Below the pieces are notes generated by a model, which saw nothing but the letters and a program-made list of their open reading frames with translations, did not search any database and was not told where the DNA came from. A stretch of DNA of 44,033 nucleotides from a virus (lineage: Duplodnaviria > Caudoviricetes): the IMG/VR virus record IMGVR_UViG_3300037851_000268, positions 1-44,033 of that record; one strand, given 5' to 3'. The position numbers and the translations under genes were made by a program. Below are positions 22,081-44,033 of the stretch, piece after piece. Each line of letters opens with the position of its first letter. The first letter of the stretch is position 1.

Positions 22081-22117
22081 TCATGCTAGACTGACAGTGG
22101 GAGGATTATGCCGAGAC

Positions 22118-24241
22118 CTACCGACTTCCGCCGCCGCTCCGCTTCGCGCGGTGTGCCGCCATCTGCGCCTCCAGATCCGCCAGGAGTTGGTCGAACGACG
22201 GGTCGCCTGTTGGTCCTCGACGGCGCAACTCGGCGAGAAGTCGCGGCGATGCGCCGCGCCGGGCGTCAGCCAGACGGGCAATTAGCTCAGGCAAGGGAGT
22301 CGTACCTTTCCCGACTCCATGCGTTCTATGTAGCAGCCCACCAGGCTTGGCACCAAGGTCGAACACCGCCTCCTGGCCGTACTTCATGCCCATCAGCTTC
22401 CCCTGCAACGAGTCCCGCGCGTTGCTCGGAAGCGCCACTGTGTCAAGAACCGTCGTCCCTATCGGGGCGGGACGAGTCCCGATCTTGATGTTGTCGGTTG
22501 GGCCTGTCTTCCATGCCACAACGGCCGCGCCGCGTGTGAGTGCGTCCGTGTTGTCCTTTGCGTAGGCCTGGAGCGCCGAGTCGAGGTCGGCACCCGGTGG
22601 CACGTAGCGTGTGCGCTCAGGGGCGACCGCAACTGACGTGCGCGGCAAGCCGAACGCATTGCCCACGCCAGGCAGCACCGTGGCTCCACCCTCGCGTCGC
22701 GTCAACGTGGCCGTCTCGCTCGCGGCGTTCGAGATGTCGGACATCTCCTGCGGCGTCAGGCTCGCGATGGCTTGCTGGAGCGTGTGCTGTTCACCTACGG
22801 GGTACCCCTGCGTCGCGGCCCGGCCACGCTCGAAGAACTCGTACTCGTCGCGCCACGCCTTCCAGAACGCGGCTTGCGCTTCTTTCGTGCTAAGACCAAG
22901 CTCTGCGCCGACCCGGCGGATATTGTCTTCGATAATTTGGTAGGCACTGTTCGCGAGCGGACCATCGCCGAGGTAGACCGACTGCTGGGCGGTCGAACGG
23001 TGGGCCTGCCTCAGGGTGTTGCCGGCCTCGTCAACGGCTTCGGTGGGAAGACCGGCCCCTCGGAAGATGTGTCGGTCAACGGTCGCCGGCTCTTCTAGTT
23101 CGCCCAGGTAGCCGGGCCGCCGCTCGTCGGCAAGGTTGTAGTCGTAGCTCTCGATCTTCCTGTTCCCGAGCGGGATGTCTTTCTCCAGGTAGTTACGAAG
23201 CGACTGGAGGCCGGGTGCCCACTGCTTCGTACCAGTCGGGCCGGTCTTTGCGGTCATACCCCAAGGGAACAAATCGAGCAACTGCTGCGGGTCGCTCGCG
23301 CCTCCCTGAAGCCCAGCGAGCACCTTAACGAACTTCCGGTAGTCATCAAGCGGGCCAGCGTTCGACCCGAACGCCGCGTATGCCTTGATCGCGGTGCGTT
23401 GTCTCCAGGTGAATCGTCCGTCGATCAGCGGTTCGCCGCGTCGCCGAGGCAACTCTCGCAGCACGAAGGGCACCATCTCGTCGTACCACTGCGGCGCATT
23501 GCCGAGCCTCCCGGCCTCGATGTATCTCCGGTAGTGGTCAGGATCGAACGCGACTCCACCCGAGTCCTGGTGGATACGCGCAACGTCTTCCGCCGCCTTC
23601 ATCACCTGGCTATGGATCCGTTCTGGCTTGACCGACTGGTAGTGCGGGATCATTTCCTGCACGATCTCTTCGACAGAGCGGCCCTTGCCAAGCTCCTGCG
23701 CGCCGTACATGCGGATCTTCTGGAATGCGCTCATTCTCCACAGAGGAGCGGCGGCAGACGACACGCCACCAGCGGCCTTTGCGAGCGCACCTACGGCCTT
23801 CGCGATAGCCGGCCCGCCTTCGGTCAGCAGGTTGATCGGGTCTTCGACGAGAGCCTTGCTGGCCTCGTAGGGCGCTCGCTCTCCTGGGAGATGCGCCATC
23901 TCGTCGTATGGCTCGGTCGGAAAGCGCGGCAGGCGCGGCGTCTGCGTGTCCATCCCGAGCGCGCGCAGGAGCGCGCGCGCGGCTTGGGACGGAAGTTCGG
24001 CGAGGTCGAGCGCGACGTTAGCTGTCTCGCGCATGGTCGATGGCAGGTAGCGTTCATACCACGGGGTCGGCGTGAGGCGCGTGTCTTCGATCATCGCCAC
24101 TGGCGTCACGCCAGTCGCGCGCTCCATGGCCGCCACGCGCGGCGACGGAGCCTGATAGGGGTCGTGGCTTGCCATCGGTCCCTGTTCCTGCGCGAGTCGC
24201 AGGAAAGCATCCTGTAGAATCCGGTCCTGTGGTCCTGGCAT
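22118..24241 (-). CDS. Large ejection-type polyvalent protein with HhH-GPD glycosylase-like domain
   Basis: QWYD...YAAFGSN...GNRKIESYDYNL...ATVDRHIFR...AYQIIE.....G..LGL....AQAAFW; last gene of the ejection cluster. Confidence 0.7.
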   Translation of the reverse strand: MPGPQDRILQDAFLRLAQEQGPMASHDPYQAPSPRVAAMERATGVTPVAMIEDTRLTPTPWYERYLPSTMRETANVALDLAELPSQAARALLRALGMDTQTPRLPRFPTEPYDEMAHLPGERAPYEASKALVEDPINLLTEGGPAIAKAVGALAKAAGGVSSAAAPLWRMSAFQKIRMYGAQELGKGRSVEEIVQEMIPHYQSVKPERIHSQVMKAAEDVARIHQDSGGVAFDPDHYRRYIEAGRLGNAPQWYDEMVPFVLRELPRRRGEPLIDGRFTWRQRTAIKAYAAFGSNAGPLDDYRKFVKVLAGLQGGASDPQQLLDLFPWGMTAKTGPTGTKQWAPGLQSLRNYLEKDIPLGNRKIESYDYNLADERRPGYLGELEEPATVDRHIFRGAGLPTEAVDEAGNTLRQAHRSTAQQSVYLGDGPLANSAYQIIEDNIRRVGAELGLSTKEAQAAFWKAWRDEYEFFERGRAATQGYPVGEQHTLQQAIASLTPQEMSDISNAASETATLTRREGGATVLPGVGNAFGLPRTSVAVAPERTRYVPPGADLDSALQAYAKDNTDALTRGAAVVAWKTGPTDNIKIGTRPAPIGTTVLDTVALPSNARDSLQGKLMGMKYGQEAVFDLGAKPGGLLHRTHGVGKGTTPLPELIARLADARRGASPRLLAELRRRGPTGDPSFDQLLADLEAQMAAHRAKRSGGGSR

Positions 24242-24266
24242 CTCACGCCCTCGCGGAGGCTCCCTC

Positions 24267-24521
24267 GTGCTGCATGACTACTTCCCGATCGCGCTCGTGC
24301 TGGCCGTCTACGTGCCCGTGTGGTGCTGCGCCCGGCCGCTCGTGCGCTGGTCCCGTGCGACCCCTGACCCCTTCGGCTCTCCCGCCCGCTCACTGGTGCT
24401 CGGCCCACTGGCCGCCATCGGAGCCGTCCTGCTGCTCGCCTCGGTGACGACGCCGGCCCTGCGCGCCGTCGTCGCCCTCCTGCTGGCCCGCGCGCTATGG
24501 CAGCAGTGCCGCCGCGTGTGA
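24267..24521 (+). CDS. Antisense-oriented small membrane protein
   Basis: GGAGG 7 nt before GTG; 2-3 hydrophobic segments; fills the gap between ejection genes. Confidence 0.6.
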   Translation: MLHDYFPIALVLAVYVPVWCCARPLVRWSRATPDPFGSPARSLVLGPLAAIGAVLLLASVTTPALRAVVALLLARALWQQCRRV

Positions 24522-35540: not shown

Positions 35541-35621
35541 CGCACTCCTAGAAGGGTGAGGTAGTTGGGTCGTTGTGCCGGGGGCGCGGCGCCCTGAGAA
35601 TGCAGCAGCGTCAGCAGCATG

Positions 35622-36470
35622 TCAGATCCCGCCCGCCGGGAGGATCATGAAGTTCGGCGGGACCAGCGCCCGCCGCGCCGGGTGGTTGAACGTATGGGTC
35701 GCGCCGTTCACTGTAGGAGTTTTGTATCCCGCCTGCGACCCCGGTCCCCAACAGTAGATCGACGCCGCCGCATTGTTTGGCGGTGAGTCCAAAGGATGCA
35801 CGTTCCAGTGATAGTTGGGAACCGAGGCCGCGCCCCCCTTACAGTGGCTGATCCAGTGATAGGGAATGCTGTCCTTCCACGTCGGGCAGACAACAAATCG
35901 CCATGCCATGTCGGCTTCGGCCTGTGTGATGCCCGAGGCAGCAGCTACCCAGAACGCAACAGCTTGGCTGGCATACGTGCCAACGCTTGCTACGCTGAAG
36001 GACAGATGCGCGATGTCTCCTTGGAAGGCCACCGTGCCCGTGCCCCGGTTGCCCGCGTAGAGGCTCGTCCCGCCAGCCGTGTAATTCCCTGACCCTGCGA
36101 CGGCGGCGCTCCCACTGATCTCGACCGGCGGCTGCTCTTCGGTGCCAATCCAGCATCGAATGGATGGGTCGGACCCATTGACCGCCGACCACTCGATGGC
36201 GATGAACTGCCACTTATTCGTGACGATGCCTGCCCCGGAGGTGACCCACTCGGTGTCCGTGGTAGCCCGATCCACGTAGAACCGAAGCTCGCTGGTAGTG
36301 GTATCCACGGCGAGGCCGAGGACGTTGCCATCGCTCCAGTAGAACCGCCCTGCTGTGAGTGTGGTGGGATAGAACCACCCGGTCACAAGGTTGGCGGTAT
36401 TGGTCCCGCCCATCGTCAGGCCCGTCCACGTAATGTCGTCGGAGGTCGCCCCTCCGAAGGTGTAGGCCAT
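35622..36470 (-). CDS. LamG/ConA-like receptor-binding protein
   Basis: WFYPT...NKWQFIA...GN......FQGDIAHL; visibly lower GC3. Confidence 0.65.
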   Translation of the reverse strand: MAYTFGGATSDDITWTGLTMGGTNTANLVTGWFYPTTLTAGRFYWSDGNVLGLAVDTTTSELRFYVDRATTDTEWVTSGAGIVTNKWQFIAIEWSAVNGSDPSIRCWIGTEEQPPVEISGSAAVAGSGNYTAGGTSLYAGNRGTGTVAFQGDIAHLSFSVASVGTYASQAVAFWVAAASGITQAEADMAWRFVVCPTWKDSIPYHWISHCKGGAASVPNYHWNVHPLDSPPNNAAASIYCWGPGSQAGYKTPTVNGATHTFNHPARRALVPPNFMILPAGGI

Positions 36471-39988: not shown

Positions 39989-40447
39989 CTAACGTCCTCG
40001 TTCTTTCAGCGCGAGATAGGCGAGTTCGAGCGCCGCGCCGCGCAGGTGCCCGGTCCGCACCGGCACCTGGCCGAAGGACTCGACGGCCGCGAGGTGCCGC
40101 CACACGTTCTCGCTCACGCCCGCCACGCGGCCCATGCGCTGCGCGACCTGCGCCCAGCCTCCCTTGTCCCTGAAGCCTTCCGCCGTCGCCGCCTGACGCA
40201 CCGCAGACCGCGCCAGCGCATATGTGGGCGACCACACGAGCCGGAGGAGACGCCAGGTGAGCCAGAGACGCTCGGGGAGGGCGCGTTCGAGGCGGCGCAG
40301 CCAGCGGCGCAGCCACTTCGGGCGCGTGACAGGTGGGGTCACGGGAGCCGTCGCGAGCAGGACCGCCGGCCAGGCGGTCGGCAGCGCCCACGCGACGACG
40401 AGGAGGCCGGCGGTGACGGCCGCCTGCCAGCCGGCGTAGCCGGGCAC
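39989..40447 (-). CDS. Membrane-associated hypothetical protein
   Basis: N-terminal hydrophobic helices, Arg-rich middle. Confidence 0.55.
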   Translation of the reverse strand: MPGYAGWQAAVTAGLLVVAWALPTAWPAVLLATAPVTPPVTRPKWLRRWLRRLERALPERLWLTWRLLRLVWSPTYALARSAVRQAATAEGFRDKGGWAQVAQRMGRVAGVSENVWRHLAAVESFGQVPVRTGHLRGAALELAYLALKERGR

Positions 40448-40527
40448 GGACGACGGCGGTTCCGGGCCGACCCCGTCGCCAGGCCAGAAGTGCTCGTGCA
40501 GGGCCTGGAGAGCGATAATGCCACCCC

Positions 40528-40881
40528 CTACGTCAGCCGTTCGGCCTGGATGCCGACCGACGCGGTGCCGGTCAGGGCGTCGTCCATGACCACGCGGAAC
40601 CGCTCACCGGTAGCGGTCGCCACGAAGCGGAAGACATACTGCCCGCTCTGGCCGGCGGGCGAGTAGAGCACGACGGTGTCGGAGACGTTCGCGCCGTTCG
40701 CCGCGTTGCGATGTTGCAGCATGAACTGGGCGGCGGCTGACCCGCCGCACGTCACGCGCACCTCGTAGATGCCGTCGTGCGGGAGTGCCCCGGTGTCGGC
40801 CATGACCGTGGCCGCCGTCGGGTTGGTGGACTCCGCGACGGAGTCCCAGATCGGAGGGTTGCCGTAGTCGGCGACTGCCAT
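40528..40881 (-). CDS. Small structural protein
   Basis: GGAGG RBS; beta-rich; second gene after MCP. Confidence 0.65.
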   Translation of the reverse strand: MAVADYGNPPIWDSVAESTNPTAATVMADTGALPHDGIYEVRVTCGGSAAAQFMLQHRNAANGANVSDTVVLYSPAGQSGQYVFRFVATATGERFRVVMDDALTGTASVGIQAERLT

Positions 40882-40894
40882 GAGCGGACCCTCC

Positions 40895-41299
40895 TCAGTG
40901 GACCGACATGATCAGGACCGCCGTGTTGCTCGTGACGTAGACGTGGAACAGACGCTGCGCGTTCTGCGCGATCGTCATCGTGCCCTTCAGCGTCACGCCC
41001 GTGCCTGCCGTGACCGTGATCGTCTCGGCGGCGTCCGCGTCGTTCTTGATCACGCAGCAGAAGGACGTGCCCGCGTGCGTCCGACCGGGTCGGCGCTCTT
41101 CGAGCGCGGCCACGATCAGTGCGGCGGTCGGCGTCACGTCGGAGCGGCTCGCGCCGTTCGGGTCGCGGAAGATCAGCCCGTTGAGCAGCTGCGCCGCTGT
41201 GTAGGTGACAGCCCCGGCCGTCGTGATTGTGGCGGGCGCGCAGGCGTTCAGCGGGACGGACTCTTCAGTGGCGATGCCGGAGAAGTGAGTGAAACCCAT
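40895..41299 (-). CDS. Minor capsid/decoration-like protein
   Basis: MGFTHFSG start, TAAQL..G...D.TPTAA motif; first gene after MCP. Confidence 0.65.
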   Translation of the reverse strand: MGFTHFSGIATEESVPLNACAPATITTAGAVTYTAAQLLNGLIFRDPNGASRSDVTPTAALIVAALEERRPGRTHAGTSFCCVIKNDADAAETITVTAGTGVTLKGTMTIAQNAQRLFHVYVTSNTAVLIMSVH

Positions 41300-41305
41300 G
41301 ATGGA

Positions 41306-41403
41306 CCCTCAGCGCAGGTGAAGCGCACCGGGCAGCCCCTGCGAGCCACTCGCCCCTCGCGCGGCGAGCACCCGGTGCGGTCGAGAAGATGCGAGGTCGA
41401 GGG
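41306..41403 (-). promoter_or_regulatory. Structured intercistronic RNA after the MCP stop
   Basis: Nested stems CCCTC/GAGGG, CGCA/TGCG, CGCACCGGG/CCCGGTGCG, CTCGCC/GGCGAG. Confidence 0.6.
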
Positions 41404-41405
41404 CG

Positions 41406-42326
41406 CTACGCGCCGCTCGTGCCGTAGACGTTCTGCCAGAGGAACGCATCCCAGGCCTGCCGGAAGCGGATCTTGTAGATCCGGTTCCCGGTGCGCGAGT
41501 CCTGCATCGGCGGGGCCTGCGTGATCGGCAGGCGGTCGATGCAGACCAGGCCGTGCTGGCTCTTCGCCGCCGCGACGAGGAACCAGGCGTCCGCGTCCGA
41601 CAGGTAGGGGTTCACCACGATCTCGATGTTGCGCCGACGCTTGATCGGGTTGACATCGTTGTCGGCTGAACCGGGGAGCGCCGTCGTGTTGACGATCCGG
41701 TCCGCGAGCATCTCCAGTGCCGGCGGCACGTAGAGGATCCACGAGGTGACCGGCGCGACCAGCTGGCCGCTCTCCAGCTTCGTCTCCGTCTGCACGTCGA
41801 TCATCGCCTGCTGCAGCGATGCGAACGAGAGGTCCGCATCGGTGCTCGGGCGGTTCTTCGCCGTGCCGCCGCCCTTCAGGACGTGCGCCGTGTTGAAGAG
41901 CGACACGCCGTCCGGGGTGGTCTGCGTGCCGAAGCCGTTGTTGAACGGCCGCGCCGCATACTTCTCCTGCACGACGCGCGCGCTGAACGCGAGCCACGTC
42001 GCGTACTTCGAGAGCACGTCGAACTGGTCGTCTTCGAGCGCCGTCTCCGACGCCTCGAACCCCATGCCGAACTCGACGGGCGTCACGTCCTTGCTGTAGC
42101 CGGGGCGGATCAGGTCGAAGGTGTAGGTCGCCCCCTCGCCCTTCTCCGGCACGTCCCCGAACGGCTGCACCGTCTGGAACCGCTCGAACTTGCGGTCGCT
42201 CGACTTCCGGTCGTAGACGGCCGTCCACTTCGGCGGCAGCTCCTTGAGCTGCTTGCCGAGCAGCGCCGTGACGACCTTGTCGACGTTGTCGTAGAGTTCT
42301 GCGAAAGTTCCTCGCACCTGAGCCAT
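41406..42326 (-). CDS. Major capsid protein (Mu gpT-like HK97 fold)
   Basis: EKGEG...D, EDDQF, FNNGF...DGVSLF...H, L.VPPAL, NDVNP, VNPYLSDADAWF. Confidence 0.9.
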   Translation of the reverse strand: MAQVRGTFAELYDNVDKVVTALLGKQLKELPPKWTAVYDRKSSDRKFERFQTVQPFGDVPEKGEGATYTFDLIRPGYSKDVTPVEFGMGFEASETALEDDQFDVLSKYATWLAFSARVVQEKYAARPFNNGFGTQTTPDGVSLFNTAHVLKGGGTAKNRPSTDADLSFASLQQAMIDVQTETKLESGQLVAPVTSWILYVPPALEMLADRIVNTTALPGSADNDVNPIKRRRNIEIVVNPYLSDADAWFLVAAAKSQHGLVCIDRLPITQAPPMQDSRTGNRIYKIRFRQAWDAFLWQNVYGTSGA

Positions 42327-42346
42327 GGTGATGTCTCCTTAGTCGC

Positions 42347-42826
42347 CTAGATGGCGAGCACACCGGGCAGCAGCGCCGCCGCCTGGAAGTGGAAGACCAC
42401 CCGACCGTTGGTGTCGCCGACGGCGTCGAGGATCTCGGTGATGACGACCTTCTTGTTCGTCGTGTCCGACTTGTCCACGCGGAACACGTCGTAGGTGCCG
42501 TCGAGCACGATCCCGTAGCCCACACCGATGTCGGTGACGGCCGTGACCGCTGACGCTTCGACGTGCGCGATGTACTCGCTGGTGACATCGGCGACGTAGA
42601 CGCCGATGGGCGAGTCGGTGGTGCCGGTGGCGGCCTGCGCCGCGATGCCGAGGATCGTGTTCGCCGCCGGGTCGCTGGCCGCTTTCGTGACCTTGCCGCT
42701 CGACAGGATCACGAGGTGACCGGCCTTGAACGACTGCGATGCCGCCTCGGGGTAGTACTTGATCTGCACCTTCGACATGTCGCGCGGGCGCATGTGCGAG
42801 TTGGTGCCAACTCCGATGGTTGCCAT
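42347..42826 (-). CDS. Head decoration/cement protein
   Basis: SFKAGHLV...ILGIA...DIG motif immediately upstream of MCP; AGGAGG RBS. Confidence 0.7.
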   Translation of the reverse strand: MATIGVGTNSHMRPRDMSKVQIKYYPEAASQSFKAGHLVILSSGKVTKAASDPAANTILGIAAQAATGTTDSPIGVYVADVTSEYIAHVEASAVTAVTDIGVGYGIVLDGTYDVFRVDKSDTTNKKVVITEILDAVGDTNGRVVFHFQAAALLPGVLAI

Positions 42827-43140
42827 GCCCTACACCTCCTCGTGCGAACGCTCGCGCGCCGCAGAGTGGATCAGAGGTTGGTGGTGAGGGTCGGGGCCAT
42901 GCTGCGTCGAGTGCCGACCAGGTCCACTCGACGTGCGCGCGACAGGTCCGGGCGTCGCCCCCGAGGTGCCGCTTGACGGTGGGCACGCACCGCACACTTA
43001 CAGCGCGCCGTGGAGCGGCCGGCGCAACGCCGCGCACGTACAGCATCGGCACGGGAGGCCGGCGCGCGGTCCGCGACTGGAGGACACGACCCGCGCGCCG
43101 GGTGCTGGTGCAGCCCGAAGGCCACGCCATGCCGCGCACC
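42827..43140 (-). ncRNA. Putative structured ncRNA / long leader of the capsid operon
   Basis: Gene-free ~310 nt with at least seven complementary stems and a C(UUCG)G tetraloop, directly behind a promoter. Confidence 0.65.
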
Positions 43141-43143
43141 CGC

Positions 43144-43172
43144 ATCATGCACATTCGACGCGGGCGCGTCAA
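43144..43172 (-). promoter_or_regulatory. Sigma70-type promoter of the capsid operon
   Basis: TTGACG-17 bp-CATGAT. Confidence 0.65.
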
Positions 43173-43188
43173 CTCGACGCCGTGAAGT

Positions 43189-43830
43189 CTACCCGCCGAC
43201 CAGGCGTTCCCGGCCGACGGTGATGTCGCCGACGAGCGAGCCGGCGACCGCCGCCGCCTCGTCGCCCGAGATGCCGCCGAAGCGCGGGTCGAGCGTGCTC
43301 GCCGCCGCGGCCGCGTCGCGTTGCAGGTCTTCCTTCAGCTGCTTCGGCGTGTCCTTCGCGAGCCGGCGCGCCTCCTGCGCGCGCTTGATCGCCGTGAAGT
43401 AGCGCAGCGGCATCTTGAGCAGCCGTTCGACGCCCTTCTCGCCCCGCGCCACGCACTCGGGCGAGGCCTCGAAGCGGTCGCTCACGTCGTCGCGCGAGAC
43501 CAGCTCGTCCCAGCGCACCGGCACGTAGCCGAGGCCCTGCGTCACTTGGTGATAGCGGTTCGGGATCGCCGTGTTGACCCAGCGCAGGTGCCACTTCCGC
43601 GACCCGCCGACCGGCTCGTCGCGCAGGCGGATGGGCACCGACCCCGGCGTCTCCGGGTCGAGCAGTCGGCGTTCGAGCAGGTCGAGCACGTCGGGCGGCA
43701 GGCTGGCGAACTCGGCCTCGGCGTTGAACACCGTGTCGGGCGACGGCAGCGGCGGCGCGTCGAGGTCAGCGTCGATCGCGGAGGCCGCCGCGAGGGCCTC
43801 GGCGAGGATGGTCGACTTCTTCTGGCTCAC
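43189..43830 (-). CDS. Conserved head-cluster protein following the scaffold
   Basis: LRWVN...GYVPV...G....LLKMP pattern; GTG with GGAGG RBS. Confidence 0.7.
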   Translation of the reverse strand: MSQKKSTILAEALAAASAIDADLDAPPLPSPDTVFNAEAEFASLPPDVLDLLERRLLDPETPGSVPIRLRDEPVGGSRKWHLRWVNTAIPNRYHQVTQGLGYVPVRWDELVSRDDVSDRFEASPECVARGEKGVERLLKMPLRYFTAIKRAQEARRLAKDTPKQLKEDLQRDAAAAASTLDPRFGGISGDEAAAVAGSLVGDITVGRERLVGG

Positions 43831-44033
43831 GGGCTAGTCCTCCAACTGAATGGGCACGCCGCTGCGGTAGTGCTTCAGCGTCTTGGTGATGTCGCCGTCG
43901 GTCAGCCCCCGGTCGTGGAGCACCTTGGCGAAGGGGGCCGCGAGCGTCGAGGCCGCGCCCGGCGCACGGCCACCGGCCCGCTCGGTGAACACGGGCGGCT
44001 CGTCCTGCGGCTGCGCCGTCCGCTGCGCCGGCT
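43814..44033. repeat. Terminal direct repeat, copy 2
   Basis: Matches 1-220 with one mismatch. Confidence 0.95.

Follow-up and report, generated by a model that had tools for sequence, protein, structure and literature searches.

Translational control by pseudoknots in mRNA leaders is known in kind, and the pseudoknots of timP and tisB are precedents for it (PMC13000454, PMC7708055). In the timP leader the pseudoknot goes with translation and cannot form together with pairings that hide the Shine-Dalgarno sequence (SD). It frees the SD indirectly, via a second long-range pairing, and timP is also the target of an antisense RNA (PMC11228461, PMC13000454). In the +42 form of tisB the pseudoknot is found at the 5' end left by processing, some 100 nt upstream, as part of a standby site in which a single-stranded stretch accompanies a sequestered ribosome site. 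There the knot has no bases in common with the SD helix (PMC7708055). Among phages, the operator of T4 gene 32 is an H-type pseudoknot through which gp32, an ssDNA-binding protein, represses its own mRNA by coating an unstructured A+U tract. A 2010 review regarded it as perhaps the one viral pseudoknot that serves translational autoregulation (PMC3014915). The same review describes the leaders of T4 e, soc and 49, where a helix that hides the SD times late genes and the late transcripts start inside that helix. The prohead RNA of phi29 is something else: 174 nt long and transcribed as a free RNA, it acts together with the phi29 ATPase, which stands in for a large terminase (PMC5066667).

Here we describe a leader element in front of phage head genes that shares features with several of these systems.

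The locus and its relatives

The window, by which we mean the whole 44,033-nt stretch analysed (IMG/VR record IMGVR_UViG_3300037851_000268), represents the genome of a tailed phage almost completely: the 30 bases at its start recur at 43814, giving a terminal overlap of about 220 bases. The minus strand carries, in order, the large terminase, the portal, a GroES-like gene, a 314-aa protein, a 213-aa protein, the gap of interest, a 159-aa protein and the major capsid protein (Table 1). The 314-aa protein, at 21-965, is Pro/Ala-rich and looks like a scaffold; the GroES/Cpn10-like gene (987-1262, minus) lies between it and the portal. No family match was found for the 213-aa protein. The predicted structure of the 159-aa protein is an all-beta domain (pLDDT 90.6) whose best Foldseek matches are the capsid-stabilising proteins of HFTV1, Sf11 and TW1 and lambda gpD, and the protein has cement-family neighbours. 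A sequence search of solved structures with this protein gave no match. Given these structural matches, the label decoration gene stands. Hints as to the host come from four metagenome-bin contigs, each from a different group, and are not reliable.

Table 1. Features of the head-gene leader and its surroundings in the window
Feature	Position	Strand	Remarks
Sigma70-type promoter-like site TTGACG-17-CATGAT	43144-43172	minus	predicted start near 43137
Predicted 5' untranslated leader of decoration-capsid mRNA	42827-43137	minus	~311 nt
5' stem-loop domain with 11-bp stem	43043-43137	minus	stem 43101-91/43069-59; differs by clade
Far anti-SD, window-specific	43049-43058	minus	not conserved; 10 bp possible with 42845-35; duplex -17.5 kcal/mol
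Pseudoknot S1 and loop (predicted)	42905-42933	minus	9 bp, 42933-42925 with 42913-42905
Pseudoknot S2 (predicted)	42889-42919	minus	GGUCGG 42919-14 with CCGACC 42894-89
Near anti-SD	42883-42890	minus	pairs 42836-28, one bulge, -13.4 kcal/mol; 42890-89 common with S2
G-poor, C/A-rich linker	42867-42888	minus	G 10% vs 32% in leaders (45 leaders)
SD-proximal hairpin, GCGA tetraloop	42839-42866	minus	base touches SD
Decoration gene SD region GAGGAGGUG	42833-42841	minus	start codon 42826
Capsid decoration/stabilising protein, 159 aa (predicted)	42347-42826	minus	first gene under putative leader control
Major capsid protein	41406-42326	minus	PF25209, PF10124, phrog_371; 20 nt past decoration stop
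Conserved 213-aa gene, family unknown	43189-43830	minus	upstream of promoter
Portal, SU10-type	3697-1601	minus	PF23899
Large terminase	5576-4005	minus	phrog_2, E 2.5e-11

The first-pass annotation, made from the window's letters, had placed a promoter-driven, multibranched RNA of about 310 nt in the gap and had called this the longest gene-free gap of the late region, in front of the capsid operon. The decoration and major capsid genes do follow on the minus strand, whereas in a crude gene prediction the stretch 35541-36469, free of calls, is longer than this gap. The codon bias usual for the genome is absent from that stretch and from 22081-24494, either of which could be acquired genes or non-coding DNA. 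The promoter-like site is where it had been placed and is the sole one of its kind in 40000-44033, where 0.1 would be expected. A similar promoter-like site precedes 46 of the 74 related leaders long enough to test, compared with 5 of 74 coding controls, and leaders measured from such sites have a median length of 235 nt. It is therefore likely that the gap is the 5' untranslated leader of a decoration-capsid mRNA that would be transcribed from this site. No terminator-like site was found in it.

An open reading frame of 93 codons (42871-43152) runs through the gap, and it had been pointed out that a conserved protein here would speak against an RNA. The frame is judged to be non-coding. Apart from itself, it has no tblastn match under E 1.8 among 260 sequences, and neither Pfam nor PHROG yields a match. 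A frame of 85 or more codons is open in just 6 of 74 leaders, and GC3/GC2 is 0.72/0.70 versus 0.92-0.96/0.43-0.49 in the neighbouring genes.

Relatives were collected as 259 related loci from protein and pattern scans. Leaders were kept where capsid identity was at least 49% and enough upstream DNA was present; 144 such leaders collapsed to 82 distinct ones, and removal of one near-duplicate left 81 syntenic leaders (80 relatives and the window). Covariation was evaluated on a dereplicated set of 65. Five relatives with a capsid identity of 60-63% have a leader that is short or missing. Short leaders with an open A/C-rich stretch ahead of the SD occur in L016, L201, L024 and L102, of which L016 and L201 may carry a different mini-pseudoknot; L132 has no gap at all.

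The element appears to be tied to this position. A pattern scan of the viral collection gave 28 matches, 26 of which adjoin a decoration homologue (the two others, L068 and L089, are unrelated), and all 38 covariance-model matches sit 533-761 nt ahead of a capsid gene. Each of five genomes tested has one strong copy, and copies are consistently found in front of the decoration gene. Covariance model R1 found nothing in 71 distant loci beyond a lone match of E 0.25 in L068; this model is insensitive because it also misses the 80% clade. BLASTN of the gap gave fragments at E 0.1-10 only against cultured phages and nothing under E 0.03 against the first 67 loci.

A predicted pseudoknot core

All eight stems of the fold first drawn for the gap are fully complementary on the minus strand, and both of its CCUCC tracts are present. 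However, eight complementary stems mean little because the region is about 70% GC. For the same reason folding energy is not informative, and the expectation that the gap would fold better than shuffled sequence was not borne out. The minimum free energy (MFE) has a z score of -0.42 for 42827-43140 on the minus strand, -0.08 on the plus strand and -1.98 for the whole 362-nt gap, and the median is -0.55 in 40 sampled leaders versus -1.27 in 39 coding controls. In the nested ensemble the 11-bp stem has a high probability (P 0.82), and the other seven stems have P 0.00-0.09. The large multibranched domain is impossible as one structure because its stem 42931-39/43031-39 shares bases with 42925-33 and 43026-31; forcing the closing stems costs 5.9 kcal/mol. 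What is conserved is also smaller than had been supposed, for conservation is limited to the 3' ~110 nt and the 5' part differs between clades.

This conserved core contains a predicted H-type pseudoknot. In the 81 syntenic leaders the order is pseudoknot, anti-SD tract, hairpin and decoration SD, from 5' to 3'. One of the stems drawn earlier, 42905-13/42925-33, is S1 of the knot; the S2 pairing made by its loop and the near anti-SD beside it had been overlooked. A motif search that used sequence only recovered C(C/T)(G/A)ACC followed by C/A-rich bases at a median of 57 nt upstream of the start codon in 82 leaders. Of 81 leaders, 41 carry upstream a perfect complement of their own hexamer, and 63 do so if 5 of 6 pairs suffice; by comparison, crossing the variants gave a complement in 3.5% of 5870 tests, and a control region gave none in 80. 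The complement falls within a hairpin loop in 48 of the 51 leaders inspected. Covariation between the S2 3' strand and the S1 loop has a z score of -9.1 in the 65 dereplicated leaders, where controls give 0.3 and -0.7.

Alignments tell a similar story with some caveats. S2 is 95%, 94% and 91% paired on three alignments, the last from a model built without S2, and is above all 500 shuffles each time. These pair counts are inflated because a pairing search was used to choose the alignment seeds, which make up 24 of the 38 rows in alignment A4. The hexamer-complement test and the 65-leader covariation test are free of this bias. On the capsid tree S2 shows 16 two-sided changes and 14 break/restore events (55 leaders). 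A tree-aware test on 53 rows counted 7 same-branch co-changes where 2.65 were expected (p 0.007), and non-partner columns co-changed 11 times across 30 pairs. A gap-free alignment of 16 relatives, anchored on an upstream flanking motif, has S1 paired in all of its 128 cells and shows numerous compensatory changes. On model alignment A4, S1 is just 51% paired, owing to register errors. Own S1 strands pair better than crossed ones (-13.0 versus -9.75), yet rank top in 7 of 45 leaders only. In the window's nested ensemble S1 has a P of 0.04. Pseudoknot finders were of unequal use: a generic one was weakly specific (80% of real versus 46% of shuffled sequences), and a targeted one called 41 of 78 real leaders, 8 of 156 shuffled, 7 of 78 coding and 23 of 78 reverse-complement sequences.

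Two covarying, interleaved stems in a 5' leader are the mark of an H-type pseudoknot translational element, and both are found here. Judged from these compensating mutations, S1/S2 appears to have been kept in dozens of related uncultured phages. The gap appears to hold a real cis-acting RNA that matches no catalogued family and that is smaller than, and different from, the fold drawn at first. The covariation among homologues that the first-pass annotation had proposed to look for exists, for S1, S2 and anti-SD:SD. Its statement that no known RNA class is recognisable holds: Rfam 15 has no match in the window at the gathering threshold, and ARAGORN and Rfam find no tRNA or tmRNA. Rfam 15 also gave no match in 20 related loci, none at E<=0.5 in 13 loci, and chance matches of E 3-7 only with the gap alone.

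Several details of the knot vary. With extensions, S1 has a median length of 15 bp and the connecting loop is short; a short loop spanning an S1 of 12-15 bp is sterically tight. A fixed geometry is seen in L014, L015, L017, L018, L019, L177, L211, L244 and clade a, namely an S1 of 8 bp, a bulge of 3 nt (4 nt in clade a), a lower helix of 4 bp in which U-U or G-U is frequent, and finally a loop of 5 nt whose last base is A. This fixed S1 geometry suggests a defined tertiary fold. S2 has an internal mismatch in L029, L123, L198 and L105. In L029 this mismatch recurs between the SD spacer and the strand in question, which looks like a joint weakening of the two states. The window carries a short duplication in 42913-42950 (GGACCUG at ~42949 and ~42926) and about 55 extra bases between S1 and GUGUGCGGU, which adjoins S1 in L185. 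The window has a close variant over 42795-42957, a contig from run X3. The three changes listed for it affect the linker and the SD-proximal hairpin and spare S1 and S2; of its four substitutions, two are missing from the list.

Further upstream, clades a and b have long 5' hairpins in the leader, and the window's 5' stem-loop domain may protect the 5' end of the mRNA. The clade a hairpin is capped C-UCCA-G and followed by 3-5 U, which is weakly attenuator-like (L001, L007, L009, L011, L020, L021, L189). The CUCCAG of this cap also occurs inside the window's 11-bp stem (43059-43101). Clade a (L001-L013, L020-L023) has, in addition, a hydrophobic ORF of about 60 codons inserted between the 213-aa homologue and the promoter.

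Probable pairing with the ribosome site

The second partner of the S2 3' strand is the ribosome site of the decoration gene. When the S2 3' strand and the eight bases after it are tested as the anti-SD segment, own anti-SD:SD pairs reach -10.75 versus -8.33 +/- 0.25 kcal/mol for permuted ones (77 of 81 leaders, four being left out because their segments overlap). Within clades, the own-versus-cross comparison gives p values of 5e-5, 5e-5 and 0.02, and control segments at -20 and -40 are null. In clade a there is no such signal (p 1.0), its 8 near-identical SDs making the comparison uninformative. In the 65 dereplicated leaders anti-SD:SD covariation has a z score of -8.5, so that these leaders have the conserved anti-SD:SD helix expected of an SD/anti-SD/anti-anti-SD platform. 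The linker alone gives -5.7 with the SD, and the S2 hexamer alone is weak, at about -2.4 to -2.6. The stretch between S2 and the start codon has a folding energy of -5 kcal/mol or lower in 43 of 45 leaders.

How many bases the two helices have in common varies between leaders. Among 77 leaders, 43 have an anti-SD helix that includes 4 or more of the six bases of S2, and 24 have an overlap with S2 of no more than 2 nt. The overlap is large in L219 and L015. In the window's best register they share 2 nt only. Since the anti-SD shares just 1-2 S2 bases in the window, L185 and L222, both helices could coexist there. The spacer base opposite S2 position 3 is one that pairs in many cases (G:C 12, A:U 10, G:U 7), with no A:C and 6 other mismatches. 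S2 itself may be conserved in sequence because its ACC complements the GGU of the SD and the loop copies the SD.

Sequestration of the SD in a new cis-regulatory leader, as initially suggested, is therefore supported, albeit by helices other than those proposed. The CCUCC tracts at 43054-58 and 43079-83 had been the proposed anti-SDs. The upstream region that contains them has no significant covariation with the SD in the family (p 0.08, n=71), and on these figures the far anti-SD was rejected as a conserved feature. In the window, forcing the far anti-SD gives a state 1.6 kcal/mol above the free ensemble.

A proposed two-state control and its rivals

What would a strand with two partners do? 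CCGACC and the bases that follow would form a single strand with two covarying partners, the S1 loop and the SD/spacer of the decoration gene. Because the S2 and anti-SD:SD helices share bases, the knot probably acts as an anti-anti-SD. We favour, at roughly 55%, a two-state translational control in which the pseudoknot is the ON state and the anti-SD:SD helix the OFF state. With S2 formed, the anti-SD helix would be shortened and a C/A-rich stretch left on which the 30S subunit could land, which is why the knot is assigned to ON. In the OFF state the strand would pair with the SD/spacer, the SD-proximal hairpin bringing both ends together. The knot would fold first because it is transcribed 23-75 nt ahead of the start codon. 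By hiding or freeing the ribosome-binding site, such a switch would tune the output of capsid protein.

The computed energies are compatible with a balance. The knot is below the free (nested) state by a median of 6.3 kcal/mol before any pseudoknot penalty. A penalty of roughly 7-9 kcal/mol for a pseudoknot would make the two states about equal. With a computed gap of only a few kcal/mol they could be tipped, perhaps by folding kinetics, by protein S1/30S or by a phage protein. Reserving the S2 strands raises the unpaired probability of the SD in 26 of 51 leaders and lowers it in 3, with mean exposure going only from 0.20 to 0.31. In the window it rises from 0.14 to 0.35 with the full leader and falls from 0.32 to 0.23 with the leader cut at -235. 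As to a trigger, the exchange might be flipped, across the phage family, by a protein of the phage, be it the scaffold, free subunits of the decoration or capsid protein, or the conserved 213-aa protein; the switch would so read head assembly or the host, an idea we regard as doubtful. If it were true, dsDNA phages would have a riboswitch-like late timer, by which head proteins made from a host-type promoter appear only when they are needed.

Perhaps nothing switches at all. The knot could always be formed, with the remainder of the anti-SD stacking on it, and serve as an S1/30S standby site that sets a fixed rate. The leaders with little overlap, the window's best register among them, fit this arrangement, as do the G-poor linker and the stronger covariation of the linker alone (z -5.7 vs -2.6 for the hexamer). 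S1-binding pseudoknots and ACA enhancers are also known (PMC7708055, PMC3879156). However, 43 of the 77 leaders have overlaps of 4-6 nt, which speaks against it, and the bases opposite S2 position 3, with A:C absent, are those expected from real SD pairing. We hold this fixed arrangement, the main rival, to be possible, if rather improbable. An operator of the T4 gene 32 type is unlikely. In that case free decoration protein, capsid protein, scaffold or the 213-aa protein of the phage would bind the knot or the upstream hairpins and repress or activate translation, matching head-protein output to assembly. The position agrees, since the gp32 pseudoknot is 67 nt before its start codon (PMC3014915) and this knot ends 62 nt before, and late genes behind a host-type promoter would presumably need post-transcriptional control. 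A bulged hairpin repeated in 22 of 81 leaders could be a binding site, but it is missing from the window's leader. Furthermore, gp32 coats an unstructured A+U tract over the ribosome site, whereas here the site is structured, with the hairpin and anti-SD helix in 43 of 45 leaders. An operator is also compatible with the two-state switch, as its possible trigger. The bulged hairpin, GYCGCCG-(variable stem-loop)-CGGGCG, looks like a tandem protein-binding site. It occurs in up to 3 copies per leader, up to 330 nt before the decoration start (carriers include L028, L029, L107, L108, L110, L116, L123, L217 and L239), and in no coding controls; there are 54 copies in 26 kb of leaders versus 13 in 371 kb elsewhere.

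The remaining explanations give the knot a different task. Some knots of the xrRNA kind block decay, and this one could likewise stop 5'-to-3' decay and leave a stable capsid mRNA that starts at S1. The long S1 and short connecting loop do suggest a compact fold; the covarying anti-SD:SD helix would be left unexplained, and we think such a stabiliser or processing landmark very unlikely. A metabolite riboswitch, with the knot as aptamer and the anti-SD:SD helix as expression platform, seems more improbable again. The strand exchange is riboswitch-like, and in the 80% clade the geometry is fixed and both a UGC and the bulge are conserved. In contrast, there are no family-wide conserved unpaired bases (a near-invariant A, in 64 of 65 leaders, is paired in both states), the downstream genes are structural and Rfam has no match. 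Least credible of all is a free structural RNA like the phi29 pRNA, an analogy offered by the first-pass annotation, with loop and strand pairing between molecules. The RNA would have its own promoter and a place in the head module, and a short loop over a long S1 might favour intermolecular pairing. Against this, the gap has no terminator-like site, the downstream SD is one of the partners of the RNA, genes for a large terminase and an SU10-type portal are present in the phage, and some relatives have no leader. pRNA is, moreover, unique to phi29-like motors (PMC5066667).

Comparison with known systems

The leader element is uncatalogued. A literature search, which covered mainly papers outside subscription, found no description of it, nor does the accessible part of Weinberg 2017 (PMC5737381) contain one. 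Fremin et al. 2023 (PMC10690425) drew on the same source collection and have five candidates upstream of a major capsid domain. Four of their supplement files hold no match to the contig name or the motif, and an unnamed overlap could lie in the alignment and model files. If borne out, the element would be a new RNA-database family and a candidate tunable translation part. It offers a compact (~110 nt), covarying, reporter-ready pseudoknot ahead of head genes, in which knot and SD helix would exchange a strand directly. It also suggests a testable answer to how phages with apparent sigma70-type late promoters time and balance capsid synthesis.

How does it compare with the systems above? Like the phi29 prohead RNA, it would be a phage RNA with loop-mediated tertiary pairing near head functions (PMC5066667); unlike it, the predicted element is part of an mRNA in a phage with a large terminase. 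Like the T4 e, soc and 49 leaders, it has a helix that would hide the SD of late genes (PMC3014915), but the promoter-like site is ~250 nt upstream of the anti-SD. The resemblance to the T4 gene 32 operator is that of a phage H-type pseudoknot ~60-70 nt before a start codon (PMC3014915). Here, however, the tract is C/A-rich and pairs with the SD, a hairpin follows, and the gene is structural. With the tisB standby site it shares a pseudoknot, a single-stranded stretch and a sequestered ribosome site (PMC7708055), and differs in that knot and SD helix have bases in common. As in timP (PMC11228461, PMC13000454), the leader pseudoknot would be the translated state, exclusive with SD-hiding pairing. 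The difference is that one strand would pair with the loop or the SD directly, that head genes of a phage are concerned and that no antisense RNA is known. The element is a member of none of these groups; it would be closest to the timP switch in its working, to the T4 gene 32 operator in its position and to tisB in its layout.
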